Both the position numbers and the translations under genes were made by a program. A stretch of DNA of 64,000 bases from a virus (lineage: Duplodnaviria; Caudoviricetes): positions 128,001 to 192,000 of IMG/VR virus record IMGVR_UViG_3300028048_000001. One strand, given 5' to 3'. This document shows, in pieces, positions 5,530-58,571 of the stretch. Numbering within the stretch: position 1 is the stretch's first letter; every line of letters begins with the position of its first letter. The notes below the pieces were generated by a model. That model was given only the letters and a program-made list of their open reading frames with translations, made no database searches and was not told the DNA's origin.

Positions 5530-8421
5530 GTGAAAGGTATGGTATGTATAAAAATGCTCTTAGATAGTTCATATACAATCATTCCACAAATTAGGTTTAT
5601 ACTTTCTTTTGATAATGATGTAACAAAAACTGTAACTGTTAAACACGAAGATACCGTCTCTTGTACATATAAGAAGAATGGTGAAAAGTTTTCAATTGTT
5701 GGTGTTGTAACTAAGATTGGATGCAATTTTAATTCTTCTCTTGGAGCAGTAAGCACCACTGCTTATATTCAAATAGATGGTTCTTCTGAATATTCTGGAC
5801 AAGTTATTTACGTTCAGCCAACTCAAATTCTTGATATTAATGTGATATCTTCTAGTGGCACTGTAGAAAATATTGTTTGCTCTGTATCTAATGAAGATCA
5901 GAGAATTACATTAGTTAGAGAAAATGAAGTTGGAGTATTCCAATATAGCCTGGATGGTATTACTTGGAATACTGCTGTTGGATCTCAAGGCATGTCTGCA
6001 TATGAATGTGCAGTTGCTTTAGGTTTTGAAGGAACAGAAGCTGAATGGTTAACTAGTCTCATTGGTCCTAAAGGTGATACTGGAGAAGCTGGAGCTCTTG
6101 AAATTTATAGAGTATTCCATTCTATCAGAGAAGCTGAAAGAGATAGATGCGAAGTTCCAAAAGGAAAACTCGTAGCTATCGTATTAGAAGAGGATACATA
6201 TCTCTTTGTAAGAAAAGATGAAGATGATAAATCTAGTCACTGTGGGTGTGGTTGCTTCATTGATGAAGATGGAAAAACTGATCCTATTAATGTAAAAGGA
6301 TATGATTACCTCGGGTCTCTTACTGTTGGACCAGAAGGACCGGAAGGTAAACCTGGTAAATCTGCATATGAATATGCTGTTGAAGGGGGATATCCTGGAA
6401 CAGAAGAGGAATTTATTCAGACACTTGGTAAATCTGCTGTAGCTGTTACTAGTTTCTATATGGGCAAAGATCCTACATTAAGAGAGACCGTTATTGGTCC
6501 TATTGATATGAAGGTCTTTGGATATACAGATAAAGAGACTTTTAAGAGTACAGAATTATCTAGAATAGATATTTATTCTAAGATAAGAGATATTAATCAA
6601 ACTTTATTATTACCAGAAACTATTATTCTTAGAGCTGTTCCAACTAAGAATACTGCTGCTAAACCCAATTTAATTATAGATGATCAGATGTATGTTGCTG
6701 ACCATATTACAAGCTATAATGGAAAAATTGGTGTTCTTAGAAGAGTAAAATATATTGAATCATATAGTGGAGAAACTATCATTTCGGATTGGATTTCTTC
6801 TACTGGTGAATTAGATTATGGTGCTGAAATTCAATATGTTATTGATGGAGAATTTCAAGAATTCACCCCAGAAGTTCAAACTCAATATAGGAAACTTCAT
6901 ACATATGATGATATAACTACTATTGAAACTACAGAATCTACTTATATTTCAATAGTATATCCTATTGATATTACTAAATTTGTACATACATATGTAACCA
7001 CATATATTGAAGAACACAAAGAAGAAATTATAGCTCCTATTGTAAGAGAAATTATTGATCTTCCTGATGGAGAAACATTATCTACATTTGTTGATAAAAA
7101 AATTAAAGATGTAACAGGAGATCTTCCTGATGGTTATGATTCTGTTACAGATTATATTAATGATAAAATTGGACCTCTTCCAGATGGTGTTGATTCTATT
7201 GTAGATTTATTGGATAAAACAGTAGGAGAACTTCCTGATGGAATAGATTCTGTAGTTGATTATATTAAAGATATAGTAGGCGAATTACCAGATGGTGTCG
7301 ATTCTATTGTAGATTTTATCAATGATATAAAAGATACTATAGGTGAAATTCCAGATGGCTATGATTCTGTAATAGACTATATTAAAGACACTGTTGGAGA
7401 AGTTCCTGAAGAGTATGAAACTCTATCTGAATATATCACTGCTGTTAAAACTAAAGTAGGAGATATTCCTGATGAATATGAAACAGTAGCTGAGTATTTG
7501 GAAGCTATCAATGATAAAATTGGACCTCTTCCAGATGGTGTTGATTCTATTGTAGATTTTATCAATGATGAAATCGGTGAAATTCCAGAAGAATATGATT
7601 CTGTAATTGATTATCTTGATGATGTTAAAGCATCTATTGGACCAATTCCAGATGGATATAATTCTTTAGCTGAATATATTGATGATGTTATTGGTGAATT
7701 ACCAGATGAGTACAATTCTATTACTGAGTATATTAATGCACTTAAAAACGAAATCGGTGAATTACCAGATGAATATGATTCTGTAGTAGAATATTTAGCT
7801 GATCTTAAATCTAAAATTGGTGAAATACCGAATGAGTACGATTCTGTTGCAGATTACATTAAACATCTTGTTGGTGAAATTCCAGATGAATATGATTCTG
7901 TTGCAGATTATTTAGCTAGTCTTAAATCTAAAATTGGTGAAATTCCTAGTGAATATGATTCATTAGCCGATTACGTAAGTAATAATACAGAATTTCAAGA
8001 ACCATTTACTACAACAGTTTCTGTAGGAGCTGTTCCTGCTGGTACATATATTGATTCTATGGGAAAATTGATTGATCTTGTTAAAGAATCTGTCGATCCT
8101 ACTGTAGAAGAAGATAACACTATTATTTATGTAGGTGTAGTAAATGATGTACCACTTACGAATTTTGATGGATTAGAAGAAGTAACCATTAAAACTGCTA
8201 CTATAAAGTATGATAAGTTTATCAATTCTTATAGTTCTAATGATCAGCATCTTATTTATGCTGCACCGAAGACTCTTGGTGAACTTATTGCTATTAAAGA
8301 TGCTAGTACATTAAATTGTTTAAATATTTGGTCTTGTACAGAATATAATGGTTATTATATTTATTACACCAATGAACCTCTTACGCTTGAAGATTACGAA
8401 CTTATATTTTACTACAGATAA
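5530..8421 (+). CDS. virion structural/fibre-like protein with collagen-like G-X-Y segments and acidic repeats
   Basis: two G(K/M)SAYE.AV..G..GTE.E motifs next to short G-X-Y runs; about 16 GE(L/I)PD.YDS..DY repeats; true start may be 5539 or 5554. Confidence 0.7.
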   Translation: MKGMVCIKMLLDSSYTIIPQIRFILSFDNDVTKTVTVKHEDTVSCTYKKNGEKFSIVGVVTKIGCNFNSSLGAVSTTAYIQIDGSSEYSGQVIYVQPTQILDINVISSSGTVENIVCSVSNEDQRITLVRENEVGVFQYSLDGITWNTAVGSQGMSAYECAVALGFEGTEAEWLTSLIGPKGDTGEAGALEIYRVFHSIREAERDRCEVPKGKLVAIVLEEDTYLFVRKDEDDKSSHCGCGCFIDEDGKTDPINVKGYDYLGSLTVGPEGPEGKPGKSAYEYAVEGGYPGTEEEFIQTLGKSAVAVTSFYMGKDPTLRETVIGPIDMKVFGYTDKETFKSTELSRIDIYSKIRDINQTLLLPETIILRAVPTKNTAAKPNLIIDDQMYVADHITSYNGKIGVLRRVKYIESYSGETIISDWISSTGELDYGAEIQYVIDGEFQEFTPEVQTQYRKLHTYDDITTIETTESTYISIVYPIDITKFVHTYVTTYIEEHKEEIIAPIVREIIDLPDGETLSTFVDKKIKDVTGDLPDGYDSVTDYINDKIGPLPDGVDSIVDLLDKTVGELPDGIDSVVDYIKDIVGELPDGVDSIVDFINDIKDTIGEIPDGYDSVIDYIKDTVGEVPEEYETLSEYITAVKTKVGDIPDEYETVAEYLEAINDKIGPLPDGVDSIVDFINDEIGEIPEEYDSVIDYLDDVKASIGPIPDGYNSLAEYIDDVIGELPDEYNSITEYINALKNEIGELPDEYDSVVEYLADLKSKIGEIPNEYDSVADYIKHLVGEIPDEYDSVADYLASLKSKIGEIPSEYDSLADYVSNNTEFQEPFTTTVSVGAVPAGTYIDSMGKLIDLVKESVDPTVEEDNTIIYVGVVNDVPLTNFDGLEEVTIKTATIKYDKFINSYSSNDQHLIYAAPKTLGELIAIKDASTLNCLNIWSCTEYNGYYIYYTNEPLTLEDYELIFYYR
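7057..7980 (+). repeat. about 16 tandem coding repeats of 18 or 22 aa
   Basis: e.g. IGELPDEYDSVVEYL; aatgataaaattggacctcttccagatggtgttgattctattgtagattt occurs twice. Confidence 0.85.
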
Positions 8422-30896: not shown

Positions 30897-31928
30897 ATGA
30901 ATTTTCCTAATCCACCTTCTAATGGTAATAATATTTATATGGGACAAGCTTATACTACAGATGGTAAACCAATACAAACAGAAACTATTCCTCCGTCTTC
31001 TAATAATAATAAATCTACTTTAGGAGTAAATTTTTCTGGACTTATTGGAACTAATGTTCGTACTCCAATTGCTCCAATATCTGGACCTATTAATACTGAA
31101 AAAACTTCTCTTAAGAAAAAGAAAAAGGGAACCAAAGTAGTTGATCCTACAGATAAAAAAGATGATATAGATCCTACTAATTCTAGACAAGTTGTAGAAA
31201 ATACTGTTTATGCTGATTCTTATGCTACAACTAATAGAATGTCATATAATATTATTGCACAAGCAGATGAATTGCTTAAAGATTGTAAGCAAGATCTAGA
31301 TTTTATTAGATCTCAAAGAAATCTTAAAGGTAAATATCATTATACTAATGCTACTTTAGCAAGTATGAGTAGTTTATTAAGTACTAAATTAGCAGCTGTA
31401 AAAGAAATTAATAATACAATTAAATCTGTTAATGATATGGAATATAGAAGATTTAAAGATATGAGAGCTATAGATCAGGGTGATGATAATAAAGCTATTA
31501 TGGATGCATATAATGCTTATATTTCTGCTCCGATTGGTGCTCCTGCTTATAATCAACCATCTACTATGGACATAACAGCTGGATTAAATGGTATTATTAG
31601 AGGAGGAGTAGATAATGCTACTCAAAATAGTTTAGACTCTGGAATGGCTAATTATTTAGCAAATTTATCTCCTGAAGAAAATTTAATGCTTAATGATAAT
31701 AATCCCAATATAGAAGAAGTATTAATATATGATGAAGCAACAGGAGCTAGATTTTTCCAATGGGTTGATAGAAAAACTAATCAGCCTATTCCTAATATGC
31801 CAATAAGTTCTGAATTAACTGCTGCAGATTACAGTGTCGATGTGAATAGAAGAATTGCAAAAAATAATAATTTAAATGATACAAAAAGAGTTATTATAAA
31901 AAATAGTTCTAATATGTCAAGATTTTAA
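30897..31928 (+). CDS. hypothetical protein with central coiled coil
   Basis: 343-aa ORF, aaggag RBS, divergent from polB. Confidence 0.75.
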   Translation: MNFPNPPSNGNNIYMGQAYTTDGKPIQTETIPPSSNNNKSTLGVNFSGLIGTNVRTPIAPISGPINTEKTSLKKKKKGTKVVDPTDKKDDIDPTNSRQVVENTVYADSYATTNRMSYNIIAQADELLKDCKQDLDFIRSQRNLKGKYHYTNATLASMSSLLSTKLAAVKEINNTIKSVNDMEYRRFKDMRAIDQGDDNKAIMDAYNAYISAPIGAPAYNQPSTMDITAGLNGIIRGGVDNATQNSLDSGMANYLANLSPEENLMLNDNNPNIEEVLIYDEATGARFFQWVDRKTNQPIPNMPISSELTAADYSVDVNRRIAKNNNLNDTKRVIIKNSSNMSRF

Positions 31929-31940
31929 ATAATAAAAAAA

Positions 31941-31965
31941 TAATAACGGGTTTTACCTGTTATTA
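31941..31965. terminator. bidirectional terminator
   Basis: taataacggg-tttta-cctgttatta with A and T flanks. Confidence 0.7.
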
Positions 31966-31982
31966 TTTTTTTATTTTAATCA

Positions 31983-32171
31983 TTATATATCACCCCCTTC
32001 TTTTTTGCTTTCAAGCTCTTTAACCCTTTTTCTCAGTCTGCTATTTTCAGACCAGAAAAGGATAAGGGCACCAATAGTTGAGACTTCTGTTAATCCTGTA
32101 GCTGTTGCAGCGATCGTTCCGATTGCAAGACCGATGGTAGCAACATCCTTAGCAATAGACTTCTTATCCAT
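31983..32171 (-). CDS. small membrane protein with coiled-coil tail
   Basis: aaggaggg RBS, hydrophobic core. Confidence 0.65.
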   Translation of the reverse strand: MDKKSIAKDVATIGLAIGTIAATATGLTEVSTIGALILFWSENSRLRKRVKELESKKEGGDI

Positions 32172-32293
32172 AGTAGTACCCTCCTTCAGGCAAACACAAA
32201 TAGGTTTTATTAAATTTTTAATTCCGTTTTCTTAACCCCGTATCTAGGGGAGGAAGTTTAACCTCATTCCTCATGAGGATGATGGTCTGAGAA

Positions 32294-32698
32294 TTACTTC
32301 ATAAAGATAGTAAATTTCTCAGTGCTCATCCGCTTCTCAGCGGGAGCAACCCTCTCATACCCCTTAGCAGGTGTCATACCGACCACCTTTTCAGGATATG
32401 CCTGAGCAGCGATGATAGATCCAACGATCCGAACCGGACCTTCAAAACTGCTTGCTTCCTGGAGGATCTGCTCAATAAGAGCTTCCCCTTCAGAGGTGCC
32501 AACAAACTCTGTGGTAACAAGACCAGCGCCCAGGTCACGTTCCACAGCCCTAGCATTGAGAATATAGTTCTCATTGCTGGGGATCTCCACGATGCTTCCA
32601 TCATGATCGATGAATCTGATCAGATGAGGAGTCGTGTTGACAATGAGAGTATTGATACCCTCAAAACCACTGGTTGCAACAAAATTGCTACTCATCAT
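32294..32698 (-). CDS. hypothetical early protein (N-x-T-P-H type)
   Basis: aggagg RBS; IVNTTPH and IVGSIIAAQAYP motifs. Confidence 0.75.
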   Translation of the reverse strand: MMSSNFVATSGFEGINTLIVNTTPHLIRFIDHDGSIVEIPSNENYILNARAVERDLGAGLVTTEFVGTSEGEALIEQILQEASSFEGPVRIVGSIIAAQAYPEKVVGMTPAKGYERVAPAEKRMSTEKFTIFMK

Positions 32699-44093: not shown

Positions 44094-44177
44094 ATCAATC
44101 TCCTTTTAAACAAATTTCTATAAAATATAGAGAGGAATATTTCTATTCCCCTCTATATTTTAACACAACTTAAGATA

Positions 44178-44786
44178 TTATTCCTGAATTGCAGAATCGT
44201 CCTTAATAAGAACCTTCATAGCTCCATCAGGAATAATACTCATTTCAATTTTACCATTCTCTACTTTACCAATGGCTTTAAAGCAATTTTCAAGAACCAA
44301 TACAGCAGGATCGGTCTGAGAAGTATTATCTTTTACCCATCCGATAATCATTTCAAGAATAGTTATCATAGAAGTAATGCAAATATCAAGTCCTAAGAAT
44401 TTAAGATTATAAAGTTCCTGACCAGCAGAAGTAAAATAAACAAGTACTGTAGAATTAGTACTAAGATCAATAGTGTCTACACCCTTCATATCTTCTTCAT
44501 AACAAGTCCAAGTATAATCCCATCTACCAGCAGAAAGATTTCCAGGATCAGATTCATTTGCAAAATATTCTACTTTAGCTCCAGCAAGAAATTCATTAGA
44601 TAATGATCTAATAATGATTCCCTTAGGAATATTATGATTTTTAACTGAAGCGAGATATTTAGATATACCAGTAAATAAAATATTGGCTATTCTATATGCA
44701 TGCTGTGGACCAAGAAGAATAGACTGTTTTGCCAGTGCTCTGCTAAAATCTTCAGAAATATTTGTTTCTTTAAACTTCATTTCCAT
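44178..44786 (-). CDS. hypothetical protein
   Basis: strong RBS, flanked by promoter motif and terminator (44123-44160). Confidence 0.75.
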   Translation of the reverse strand: MEMKFKETNISEDFSRALAKQSILLGPQHAYRIANILFTGISKYLASVKNHNIPKGIIIRSLSNEFLAGAKVEYFANESDPGNLSAGRWDYTWTCYEEDMKGVDTIDLSTNSTVLVYFTSAGQELYNLKFLGLDICITSMITILEMIIGWVKDNTSQTDPAVLVLENCFKAIGKVENGKIEMSIIPDGAMKVLIKDDSAIQE

Positions 44787-54374: not shown

Positions 54375-54881
54375 TTAATTATATTTATATATTGGATTAT
54401 CAAGATCTATAGTATGTTTACAATCAAGAATTCTTTGATTTTTACTTCCTCTAAATTTAAGAGTTACATCTTTTAATTCTTCTATAAATCTACCATATAC
54501 TAAATAATCTACTAATTTAATAATTTCTTTTTTCTTTTTATCAATTCTTATCTCATCTATATTATATCCAGTAAATAACCAGAAAGTTTTTGTATCTTTA
54601 AACTCATATCTCAATCTTTCTAGTATTAATATTACTGAATCAATATTGAAATCTGCTAATGGTTCTCCTCCAAGAATAGAAATTCTTTTAATATAATTTC
54701 TTTTTCCTAGAGTAATAAATTCTTCTAAAATATCATCAGTAAATTCAGATCCTCCATATTCATACCATGTTTCAGGATTAAAACATCCTTTACAATGAAG
54801 AGGACATCCTTGAACAAATAATGATATTCCTATTTGTGAACCATTACAAATTTCAAATTTATCTATTCCAGCATATCTCAT
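54375..54881 (-). CDS. nrdG: anaerobic ribonucleotide reductase activase (radical SAM)
   Basis: LFVQGCPLHCKGCFNPETW, ILGGEP, FRGSKNQR; probable start MRYAGI. Confidence 0.93.
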   Translation of the reverse strand: MRYAGIDKFEICNGSQIGISLFVQGCPLHCKGCFNPETWYEYGGSEFTDDILEEFITLGKRNYIKRISILGGEPLADFNIDSVILILERLRYEFKDTKTFWLFTGYNIDEIRIDKKKKEIIKLVDYLVYGRFIEELKDVTLKFRGSKNQRILDCKHTIDLDNPIYKYN

Positions 54882-54898
54882 AATGAGCCTGCCTTTTA

Positions 54899-57800
54899 TT
54901 ATCTTTTCCAAGATTTAAGCATTTTTGAATGTTTATATCTCATATCTGCTTCTTGCTGTTTACCAAGATTAAATGATTTATGATAATCTCCAGTAAGATA
55001 TCCAGTAACTCTGCGAAGTCTTTGAATATCAGATGATCCACAAATTGGACAATTATCATTAATTTCATCAGTATATCCACAATTCATACAAGTATCAGAT
55101 GGAACATTTATTGCAAAATAAGGAACATCCTTATCCATAGCATAAATAATAATATCTTCTAATGCTTCAAGATTATTTTTAGCAGATGATTCTATTTCTA
55201 CATATGTAATACAACCTGCAGAAGAATATCCTGTTAATTGAGATTCTATATCAATTTTTTCAAAAGGATCAATTTCTTTCCATACAGGAACATGAATACT
55301 ATTCGTAAAATAAAGTTTATCTGATACATTAGGAATAGTTCCATATTTTTCTTTAAACTTAGTCATGGCAGTATATACTAATGTTTCTGCAGGTGTATAA
55401 TATACACCAAAATTAAGTTTATATTTCTGTTTAAATTCTGCACATCTATCTTTAAATAATTGTTCAATTCTTTTAGCTAATTCCATACCTTTTGGTTCAG
55501 TATGATCACATCCTATAAGAATTTGAAGAGTTTCTGCTAAACCAACTTGACCTAATGCTAAAGTTCCATGTTTAAGTGCAGATCTTGTATCTTTACCATC
55601 ATAACCAAGCATTACTTTATTACCATACATGAATTTAGCACATTCTGCTGGTTGAGCACAAATCCACTCAAATCTTTCAATCAATTCATCTTTAGCATCA
55701 TTAATATAATGATCAAGAAGATTCATAAATTCTTCAATAATATCAGAATTTTTCTTTAATGATTCTTCTTTTGCCATCATAGCGATAGTTGGCATAATTA
55801 CAGTAACAGGACAAATATTTCCTCTTCCATCTTTAGTTTGTGGATTAACATCTGGATCATGATTTATATCATAACCATTTACTGTCCTACACATTTTACC
55901 CTTTATCACTAAAGGAACTGACTATATCATCATTTAAATATGGGATTTAAATGTCCTCCGCTTCGAATATGTGCTTATCTCATATTCTACTCTCTTACAT
56001 TCATCAGAGATAGTCGATACACTTTCAATCAAGAATAGTAATTTTATTATCATTAATATTAATGATAACTCCCCATTTACTATATATACAATATTCAATT
56101 CTCTTGATTGCTTAGCACGGTCTCAACTTTAATAATATTTTATTATTGCATAAATAATAAAGTCCTAACCGTTAGCAGCTTATAATTAAGCTACACCCAT
56201 TAAGCATGGTTCAAAGGATTTTATATGGGCTGTAGTTCTAGACTTACCCATAGTTGCAAATTCTGTTTTTGGATCATTTGGATCATATCCAGCATTGCCA
56301 GACCAATCTACATTTGCATAATTAGGATATAATCGTTTAGCTGTACACTTAACAGCTAATTTAAATATATCATAATTAGGATCTCCTGGATGCTTATTAA
56401 TGCCATTTTTTAATTTATAAATACAACAAGGAAATATTGGAGTTCTATGAACTTCTCCAATTCCTTTAATAGATTCTTCTAAAAGAGCAATAGATATCAT
56501 TCTTCCTTCTGGAAGAGTACATGTACCATAGTTAATTGAGGAAAAAGGTCAAATGTTATCTTATAGACTTTTTATTCTATAATTCTTACAATTTCTTGTA
56601 AGGTCGGCGTACATATTCACCATGGTATTTTACTACTTTAGGTATGGGTACTCTTGGATGGATTATTATATTCTTCACCATCTACGCTCTACAATGTCAG
56701 TTTACCTTTTAAATTAAACTGATTATCTCGGTATTAACATAATATATTAAATTTAAATTAATATATCTTAGCCTTCACCGATTTTACCCAATTCATCTTA
56801 TATATTTCTATATAAGCGGCCACCAATTTAGCTGAGATAATTTTATTATCTTATAGACTTTTTATTCTATAATTCTGGAAATCGCTTTCATACTCTACAT
56901 ACCTTTATTAGTAGAGATACGTCTGTCAATTCAGACCAGTTTGGCATAAATTTTTACCCTCGTTTAACGTTAGGTTTGTCTGCGATCAACTCAGACTCAT
57001 ATAGTGCTATACACTATAGTATTCGACACTCGTGGGAGTATTATATTTATTCAACTCCTATGCTCTACAATACTAATTATCCTTACGTAATATAATTAGT
57101 TATCTCGGTATTGTCACAAATAATTTTATATTCTTCAAATTTTCTTCTTAAAAATAAATTTTGTGCAAAATTATATATATTATTTTGTGAGTTTTACCGA
57201 TTTTGCCGAATTAATCTAATATATTTCTATATTAGTGGGCCCTCATTTGACCCGATCTACTCTGCAGTGTGTTAAGATTATGGTACATGGCTTCTATAGA
57301 TTGATAAACTTCTCTTTTTGTCATATCCATAGCATAATTATATGCTTTAGAATATTTCTTATACCAATCATCTTCTATAGAAATTTCTTTAATATTTTTA
57401 TTAATAGGGTTTTTATATTTATCTATTAATTCTTCTTTATTTTCTACATATTTTAATCCATCTCTAAAATGTTTATTAAAGCTTTTTCTTACAAATGGAA
57501 CCATTGTCCAGTCGAGGTGCGTGGCACTAACTCCCATTACTCTTTATATTTCTATAAAGTCTGACTATATCTTCTTTATTCTATTGAATAAAGTCTCGCA
57601 CTTGGGTAATAGATATTTTATATCTACTATGTGGTCTTGATACCACTCCTACTCCCTTACATTCATCAGGGATAGTCGATACATTAAGGAAATAATACAA
57701 TATATTTATTTACTCTTTTTCTATAATTATTATTTCTAAAAGTTGAAGATTTCCTTAACACGGTATTACCATATCTATATTTATATAGACTTAGGCTCTC

Positions 57801-58571
57801 TTACCACTTTAATCTTTCGATTTGGTTGACCGTTAGCAATTTATTATAAAAATAAATCACACCCTATATCTATAGGTTCACGAGATTTTACTTCGGCAGA
57901 GTATATTATTTACCGAATTCCTCTAGACTTTGAATTTGAAATATAACTGCTACTAATTGAAAAGCAGTACTTACTGTCTGTGGAGGTCTAATATCATTTT
58001 TTGAATTTCCTTTTAATGCAAACCCTTTTTCAAATAACATATCAAAAGGAACACTCATGCAATTATGCATTCCTACTACATATCTGTCTAAATCATGAAT
58101 ATATACTATATTATTTCTATGATTATCAGCATGTCTTTTAGACATATATTCATCTAATGCTAATTCTTTCATTATAGCATTATCTGCTTCACCAATTCTT
58201 CCACCAAAACTTGCTTCATCTATATTAGCATTCTGATTTTGAACGTTAGACGCAGCAAGTTTTTCTTTAATAATTTTTCTAATATTTGACTTTTTTTCTC
58301 TTTCTTTAGTACGTTCATTTCTATAAGTAATATAAGCTCTTGCTACATCTTTTCTTACATCCATAAGAGCTTCTTCTACTTTGTCTTGAATTTGTTCTAC
58401 AGAAAGATTTTCATTTAAATCATAAATATTTTGTGCAATTTTTCCAGCTTCAATAAGAGCTTCTTCAGTGCATATACCATCTACAGCATTAAATGCTTTA
58501 ATAACAGCAGTTGATATTTTATTTTTATCAAATGATTGCATTGATCCATCTCGTTTTTCTACATAAAGCAT
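54899..58571 (-). CDS. nrdD: class III anaerobic ribonucleotide reductase, 5 exons (58571-57912, 57534-57250, 56837-56830, 56549-56246, 55891-54899), 749 aa after splicing
   Basis: ATP-cone, YIHDLD, HNC; splicing restores FGGVSATH, RSGSQLPFSSINYG and MGCRT; YTPAE, CxxC..CxxC, RRVTGYL; exons total 2250 nt. Confidence 0.92.
55892..56245 (-). mobile_element. group I intron nrdD-I4 (354 nt, no ORF)
   Basis: P1 augggU/Gcccau, P10 uguag/cuaca, R gacua, S gauauaguc, terminal G; splits MG|CRT. Confidence 0.9.
56550..56829 (-). mobile_element. group I intron nrdD-I3 (280 nt, no ORF)
   Basis: P1 gcU/Ggc, P10 acc/ggu, P7 ga-gcgua/uacgcc, terminal G. Confidence 0.85.
56838..57249 (-). mobile_element. 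group I intron nrdD-I2 (412 nt, no ORF, apparent terminal A)
   Basis: P1 gggU/Gccc, P10 ucuca/ugagg, P7 ga-gcaua/uaugcc. Confidence 0.8.
57535..57911 (-). mobile_element. group I intron nrdD-I1 (377 nt, no ORF)
   Basis: P1 uucggU/Gccgaa, P10 ggagu/acucu, R gacua, S aagauauaguc, terminal G. Confidence 0.9.

Follow-up and report, generated by a model that had tools for sequence, protein, structure and literature searches.

The nrdD gene discussed here, which encodes an anaerobic ribonucleotide reductase (RNR), appears in its phage genome in pieces: on the minus strand of the 64,000-nucleotide (nt) stretch analysed (the window, i.e. positions 128,001 to 192,000 of the IMG/VR virus record IMGVR_UViG_3300028048_000001, which spans 274,241 base pairs (bp) and has direct terminal repeats), NrdD-like sequence is spread over four reading frames, with no long open reading frame (ORF) in the intervening stretches. 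The first-pass annotation of this locus, made from the sequence alone, had proposed that four group I introns of two families interrupt the gene (I1 and I4 in one family, I2 and I3 in the other). The present analysis indicates that the four inserts are almost certainly group I introns, an identity that is graded as secure on sequence evidence. The best explanation of the locus as a whole, to which we assign a rough probability of 0.7, is that four ORF-less introns of IA type occupy recurrent homing sites and that exon ligation of I2 is impaired. The introns, numbered in the order of transcription, are as follows:

57535..57911, minus strand: intron I1, family A, 377 nt, no ORF; terminal G57535, guanosine-binding pair G57677-C57563
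56838..57249, minus strand: intron I2, family B, 412 nt, no ORF; ends with A56838, guanosine-binding pair G57063-C56944
56550..56829, minus strand: intron I3, family B, 280 nt, no ORF; terminal G56550, guanosine-binding pair G56687-C56607
55892..56245, minus strand: intron I4, family A, 354 nt, no ORF; terminal G55892, guanosine-binding pair G56015-C55920

A P1 helix with a U.G pair at the 5' splice site and a P10 helix to the next exon, both of which had been claimed for each junction, were found for all four introns. P1 comprises 6 bp in I1 (UUCGGU/GCCGAA), 4 bp in I2 (GGGU/GCCC), 5 bp including one A.C mismatch in I3 (CAGCU/GGCCG) and 6 bp in I4 (AUGGGU/GCCCAU), while P10 measures 5, 5, 3 and 5 bp in I1 to I4, respectively, being contiguous with P1 and located directly 5' of it on each guide. 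The A.C mismatch arises as the guide of I3 (window 56817-56834) reads GGCCG, versus GGCUG in same-site relatives; it is present in every strain examined, including those that lack I2.

The cores of I2 and I3 were linked by blastn to the terminase intron of Lactobacillus phage JCL1032 and to intron regions of Staphylococcus, crAss-like and other phages. Two covariance models were then used, both built without any window sequence: R1, representing family B, from nine introns of other phages and trimmed to 215 positions, and R2, representing family A, from seven nrdD introns that related phages carry, with only the 3' half of each being used. R1 matched I3 (123 bits, E=5e-36) and I2 (110 bits, E=4.9e-32) across the whole model, and R2 matched I4 (E=8.5e-25) and I1 (E=8.3e-16) with the alignments ending exactly at the predicted last G in each case (55892 and 57535, respectively). 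Across families the models gave nothing beyond a weak match to the S element. Weak model matches at window positions 6103-6226 and 44126-44241, located mostly or wholly inside long ORFs, were taken as chance. The Rfam model RF00028, applied with gathering and E-value thresholds, produced no match to any of the four introns, even at E up to 10. Rfam release 15 also misses the introns of Staphylococcus phage SA2 and the JCL1032 terminase intron (L006:1446-1671; L numbers are our handles for the sequences compared), which is annotated as a joined coding sequence and has reportedly been described as self-splicing. As the annotated JCL1032 intron is missed too, the Rfam negative carries no weight. 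A search with group I intron models had been suggested as a check of the annotation; its outcome was mixed, with the Rfam model silent on the introns and on the JCL1032 control, and the purpose-built models matching all four. A scan with Rfam release 15 is blind to group I introns from these phage families.

Structural analysis gave the same grouping. Family B has the layout P1, an optional P2 (with a GAAA loop), P3-P7, P7.1, P8, P9 and P9.1, followed by a conserved tail, GAUAAC; P7 crosses P3, which is the hallmark pseudoknot, and the second P7 pair is an invariant G-C beside a bulged base. Across 15 family B sequences 93.2% of cells were paired and 44 of 54 pairs had changed on both sides, compared to 32-41% of cells paired when the partners were slid. 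In family A, cgacuauc and gauauaguc represent the classical R and S elements, respectively, and P7.1, P7.2 and, with GNRA loops, P8 and P9 are present; in its 3' half 95.1% of cells were paired, with 22 of 29 pairs changed on both sides (slid-partner controls across both families: 31-43%). In family A, nine of nine introns form P3, for which four distinct sequence pairs are used, and the strands follow one another as P3-5', P7-5', P3-3', P7-3'. The guanosine-binding G-C pair is invariant in both families (13 of 13 aligned rows in each), I2 included. On account of the model E-values (5e-36 to 8e-16) and of the covariation relative to slid partners, chance is excluded as an explanation. These introns would be of the IA type, with additional helices inserted between P7 and P3-3'. 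P7.1 and P7.2, the combination expected of subgroup IA2 (T4 td-like), were both observed in family A, and only P7.1 in family B; additionally, family A possesses two hairpins between P3 and P4 that fit no place in the standard scheme.

The core blocks quoted in the first-pass annotation as common to each pair of introns are present, those of I1 and I4 being the R and S elements, and the compensatory P7 change between I2 and I3 (A-U versus G-C) was located at the third P7 pair. The proposal of four introns in two families is thus borne out by independent models and by covariation, including that of the P3/P7 pseudoknot. As a separate observation, the two halves of I1 differ in their nearest relatives: the 5' half is most similar to the intron at the I1 site of a related locus (L010:2327-3377; 85%), and the 3' half shares more with the I4-site family (85%) than with L010 (77%), which hints at an exchange between two introns within one gene.

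If these introns are removed, the remaining segments of the gene are the following:

57912..58571, minus strand: nrdD exon 1 (E1), 220 codons; ATP-cone and N-terminal part, ending EEFG / ggt
57250..57534, minus strand: nrdD exon 2 (E2), 95 codons, GVSATH...SRSG
56830..56837, minus strand: micro-exon of 8 nt, UCUCAGCU, between I2 and I3
56246..56549, minus strand: nrdD exon 3 (E3), 304 nt, PFSSINYG...ATMG
54899..55891, minus strand: nrdD exon 4 (E4), 330 codons and stop; CRT..., Gly-radical domain

Together these exons sum to 2250 nt, i.e. the continuous 749-amino acid (aa) NrdD that had been predicted plus a stop codon. For comparison, 80 related loci were collected from IMG/VR, most of which carry an uninterrupted gene, and the spliced protein is colinear with the 76 uninterrupted relatives, with nothing lost or duplicated. 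Alignment to solved anaerobic RNR structures placed the pieces in order, exon 1 reaching to approximately residue 211 of 8P23 and exons 2, 3 and 4 corresponding to residues 228-312, 316-419 and 432 onward, respectively, while the four pieces are likewise colinear on the Pfam NRDD model (2-99, 105-157, 158-263 and 263-562). As had been noted, reading through any of the four unspliced junctions leads to a stop codon; this occurs within 1-20 codons. I4 was correctly described as lying immediately before the catalytic cysteine: it falls between the Gly and Cys codons of MGCR, and this Cys aligns with Cys290 of T4 NrdD, the thiyl-radical site. Furthermore, the Thomasclavelia phage TR-TP2 (L005:2420-3320) and a metagenomic relative (L077:4110-5000) contain an HNH-bearing intron that is inserted after 'at' in the codon for Met, 4 nt upstream from the site of I4; neighbouring positions at the radical cysteine are therefore targets of two different introns.

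Strain variation at the locus was assessed in assemblies retrieved from ENA and Logan with the proteins encoded by exons 1 and 3 as look-up queries. This yielded many assemblies of the same phage, which are 96-100% identical in the portions of nrdD that they share. I1 is absent from three strains (L156, L161 and L163), in which the allele reads gaa ttt gga/gga gtc (slashes mark junctions), and I2 is absent from seven contigs, which read agt gga/tct cag ct and then continue into I3; the boundaries of these intron-less alleles agree with the predicted junctions to the base. Other strains carry longer forms of the same introns, namely I3 with a 278-aa ORF (L148, L158 and L159), I4 with a 250-aa GIY-YIG ORF (L148 and L156) and I2 with a 311-aa LAGLIDADG gene (L150 and L166, on contigs that end before the I2 3' end). 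I2 of the window retains the last ~45 nt of the LAGLIDADG gene, and is therefore regarded as a deletion derivative of that form. In related phages, introns with GIY-YIG ORFs are found at the I4 site (L008, L012, L026 and L027), introns with LAGLIDADG ORFs at the I3 site (L047 and L069) and introns with other ORFs at the I1 site (L010 and L062), while other nrdD sites harbour further introns or an intein (L054, TR-TP2/L077 and L049). The intein-like element is an in-frame insert in exon 1 of L049 (L049:3353-4251; GMHNC/AKRS...IVTGN/CLSIPFD). The existence of strains without I1 or I2, and of strains with endonuclease-bearing I2, I3 or I4, settles where the junctions lie and indicates that the introns are mobile. 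The strains of this one phage display every stage of the homing cycle across the four sites (empty site, intron with endonuclease and intron alone), and the same-site endonuclease-bearing introns, the intron-less alleles and the conserved spliced protein all concur with the annotation of the inserts as introns. One sample (ERZ27252065) yielded both an I2-less and an I2-bearing contig (L153 and L162), so that both alleles coexist in one community. No match to the I2 junctions was obtained from exact-pattern scans of IMG/VR and JGI metagenomes.

All 76 uninterrupted relatives have nine bases between the codons for SRSG and those for PF, and read SRSG[N/C]QLPF, so that the window requires three codons at this position. 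These are supplied by UCUCAGCU (56837-56830) together with the first base of exon 3, encoding Ser-Gln-Leu, and strains without I2 read the same 8 nt as plain exon. Removal of I2 and I3 as one unit was considered and rejected, as it shifts the frame into a stop codon; the 8-nt exon must consequently be kept. The micro-exon is the P10 partner of I2 (UCUCA) as well as the P1 partner of I3 (CAGCU), and because these pairings overlap by 2 nt the two ribozymes cannot hold it together, meaning that I2 and I3 would have to act in turn.

I2 differs from the other three introns at its 3' end, where the terminal G of I1, I3 and I4 is missing and the junction follows A56838. This position is set by the empty-site alleles, by the 5-bp P10 (UCUCA/UGAGG) and by the invariant Gln, and the end reads GAUAAUAAAAUUA/UCUC. 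The terminal A was found in five assemblies from five samples, comprising at least four haplotypes that are approximately 1.2% apart, and is therefore not an assembly slip. The other family B introns that were compared have a G at the 3' splice site; in close relatives, 11-13 nt separate it from the start of GAUAAC. When another 80 introns sharing the P8 insert were scanned, the tail motif was identified in 61, each followed by a G 6-14 nt downstream, although the scan was rough and some of the shortest matches are unlike real tails; those tails without the motif that were inspected also reach a G. Among introns at the I2 site of other phages, three lineages (L170, L171 and L174) end in G. On this basis I2 is classed as a derived or atypical group I intron.

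Other placements of the I2 boundary were tried and discarded. Shifts of 1-3 nt, enumerated by hand, never yield a terminal G, while a boundary at G56850 would add five residues, remove the conserved tail motif and leave no P10. Nor is the terminal A explained by an altered guanosine-binding pair, none being present: the A-U/G-C covariation concerns the third P7 pair, and the binding pair is G-C in A-ending introns and their G-ending sisters alike.

From the sequence, structure, homology and polymorphism described above we infer the splicing chemistry, and its efficiency, as follows. The nrdD pre-mRNA would be repaired through the usual two transesterifications: free guanosine, bound at the P7 G-C pair, would attack after the U of the P1 U.G pair, and the freed exon end, aligned by P10, would then attack after the last base of the intron. 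I1, I3 and I4 possess all the elements that the two steps require. In I2 the core is complete, and P1 as well as a P10 of 5 bp are present, but the only junction that would restore the invariant Gln-Leu follows A56838. Established ribozyme chemistry predicts poor exon ligation for I2. Ligation of I2 is probably impaired, and would then be the slow or failing step that limits NrdD output in I2-bearing strains, with I2 as a homing-driven element that may cost the phage part or all of its NrdD.

An alternative is that I2 splices normally at A/UCUC in a lineage that tolerates a terminal adenosine, and that all four introns are efficiently removed. Several findings point this way and weigh against impaired ligation. 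The A is fixed in the five assemblies and their haplotypes, whose exons are under purifying selection (synonymous to non-synonymous differences of 20:0, 34:4 and 13:2 among I2-bearing haplotypes); the few substitutions in I2 lie in peripheral inserts and leave the core helices untouched; the P10, a helix that serves solely the second step, has been retained, and its guide fits the phage's own Ser codon. Additionally, a second I2-site lineage (L167-L169, 11 contigs) ends without G, as ...uuuucaA/aau cag, with fitting P1 and P10. The selection, the distribution of the I2 substitutions, the guide fit and this second A-ending lineage together suggest that the terminal A of I2 may be tolerated. However, the P7 binding pair of I2 is still G-C and shows no change that would separate the A-ending introns from their G-ending sisters; in Tetrahymena and Anabaena mutants a terminal G to A change reportedly blocks ligation unless the binding pair becomes A-U, and the synonymous divergence may predate the spread of I2. 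Normal splicing of I2 is accordingly viewed as unlikely, although the population data give a tolerated terminal A a genuine chance, and it appears similarly doubtful that I2 and, independently, the L167-L169 intron naturally ligate exons with a terminal adenosine and a G-C binding pair. The A-ending intron of L167 (L167:1320-2700; also in L168 and L169) belongs to a related 276-kb phage and bears a LAGLIDADG gene; its tail, uuuucaa, looks similar to the 3' exon next to a sister intron that interrupts a different gene (L198), as though the intron had taken a fragment of an old exon with it.

In both A-ending introns the next G is the last base of the Gln codon, and its use would delete two codons in frame. 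For I2 this is G56832, the first G after the tail, and if it served as the terminal G the micro-exon would shrink to CU and the phage would make a NrdD without Ser-Gln (SRSG-L-PF). The preserved frame is compatible with such a product, the same holds for the L167 lineage, and an I2-specific hairpin (GAUAA/UUAUC) could hide the A/U junction. This boundary was nevertheless rejected and is considered improbable: it deletes a Gln that all 76 relatives have without exception, as do three solved NrdD proteins (T4, P. copri and one other), it leaves a P10 of only 2 bp and a tail of 19 nt versus 11-13 nt in other family B introns, and I2-less strains read the 8 nt in full. It is even harder to maintain that the inserts are not introns at all and that nrdD has decayed or fragmented into pieces that are dead or encode separate polypeptides. 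While the silence of Rfam and the four separate ORFs listed by gene callers could be read in this manner, every piece is in register with the uninterrupted relatives, the ribozyme cores are complete and covarying, the boundaries match the intron-less alleles and an 8-nt piece cannot be a gene; we therefore regard a non-intron origin as extremely improbable. Impaired ligation of I2, in a gene otherwise equipped for splicing, is thus retained as the preferred reading.

Downstream of nrdD, and overlapping its end, lies the gene for the activase:

54375..54911, minus strand: nrdG activase, radical SAM, CPLHCKGC; overlaps the end of nrdD

Pfam Fer4_12 and Radical_SAM were matched on the neighbouring gene, which is identical to this nrdG. 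No large subunit of a class I or class II RNR was found in the phage genome, making nrdD its sole RNR gene. The first-pass annotation had concluded that the supply of deoxyribonucleoside triphosphates (dNTPs) depends on four guanosine-dependent splicing events. The part of this claim that concerns the phage stands, in that nrdD is its only RNR gene, but a host enzyme may supply dNTPs; furthermore, four splicing events are not assured, because I2 lacks the 3'-terminal G that is used in the second, guanosine-site-dependent step. Elsewhere in the same genome (L132:12050-12750, approximately 31,850-32,550 of the record, minus strand) two further group-I-like 3' ends were observed, both with the S element gauauaguc, a GNRA hairpin and the block gaaguucauaagagaacugca as in the TR-TP2 and L054 introns, and adjoining a 300-aa ORF that resembles an HNH-type endonuclease; this phage thus probably carries at least six introns.

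Among known systems, the T4 nrdD (sunY) group I intron and the other T-even introns, those of td and nrdB, are close to the present ones. The present introns resemble that of T4 nrdD in lying in a conserved part of the enzyme, in the P7.1/P7.2 helices and in mobility through a homing endonuclease (PMC2988022, PMC1865063). They differ in that T4 nrdD contains one ORF-carrying intron while four ORF-less introns of two families are present here, and no match between the T-even introns and these introns was found at the blastn level. The terL introns of Lactobacillus phages JCL1032 and LL-H and of Staphylococcus phages (e.g. SA2) belong to the same ribozyme family as I2 and I3, with 76-88% blastn identity over the P6-P7.1 core, the shared model that gives 110-123 bits on I2 and I3, and a common conserved tail motif, GAUAAC. 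Unlike I2 and I3, these terminase introns lack a P2 hairpin and are free of large inserts in P5, P8 or P9; they end in G and reside in a different host gene, the JCL1032 intron lying in the Walker A codons of terL.

Several group I introns or inteins near conserved residues of one phage RNR gene, with a content that varies between strains, have been reported, examples being Twort nrdE, Brochothrix A9 nrdE (three introns and an intein) and the nrdD of Jug gut phages, which is in four fragments and for which splicing reads are available (PMC3653736, PMC12880540). Intron-rich phage RNR genes are thus well known, and the main finding contributes a further example, not a new principle. Relative to the Twort, A9 and Jug genes, the present gene has four introns, two of which are only 8 nt apart, and the unusual details are the micro-exon and the A-ending intron, for neither of which a comparable report was found in a non-exhaustive search of the literature. 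The two lineages with a final A, at a junction that NrdD itself demands, represent either selfish elements that spread while crippling a host gene or a natural bypass of the terminal-G requirement; ligation with a terminal adenosine would, if true, be an exception to the universal terminal-G rule. The closest parallel to the arrangement of I2 and I3 is offered by the side-by-side group I twintrons of fungal mitochondria, e.g. in cox3 of Hypomyces aurantius and of Ophiostoma ips (PMC8393795), which likewise consist of two group I introns of one family in tandem. In the fungal case the pair is believed either to be removed jointly or to have no exon in between (PMC8393795), whereas here an 8-nt exon must stay. 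As a pairing partner of both ribozymes, the micro-exon provides a clean natural system in which to study the order and interference of neighbouring ribozymes.

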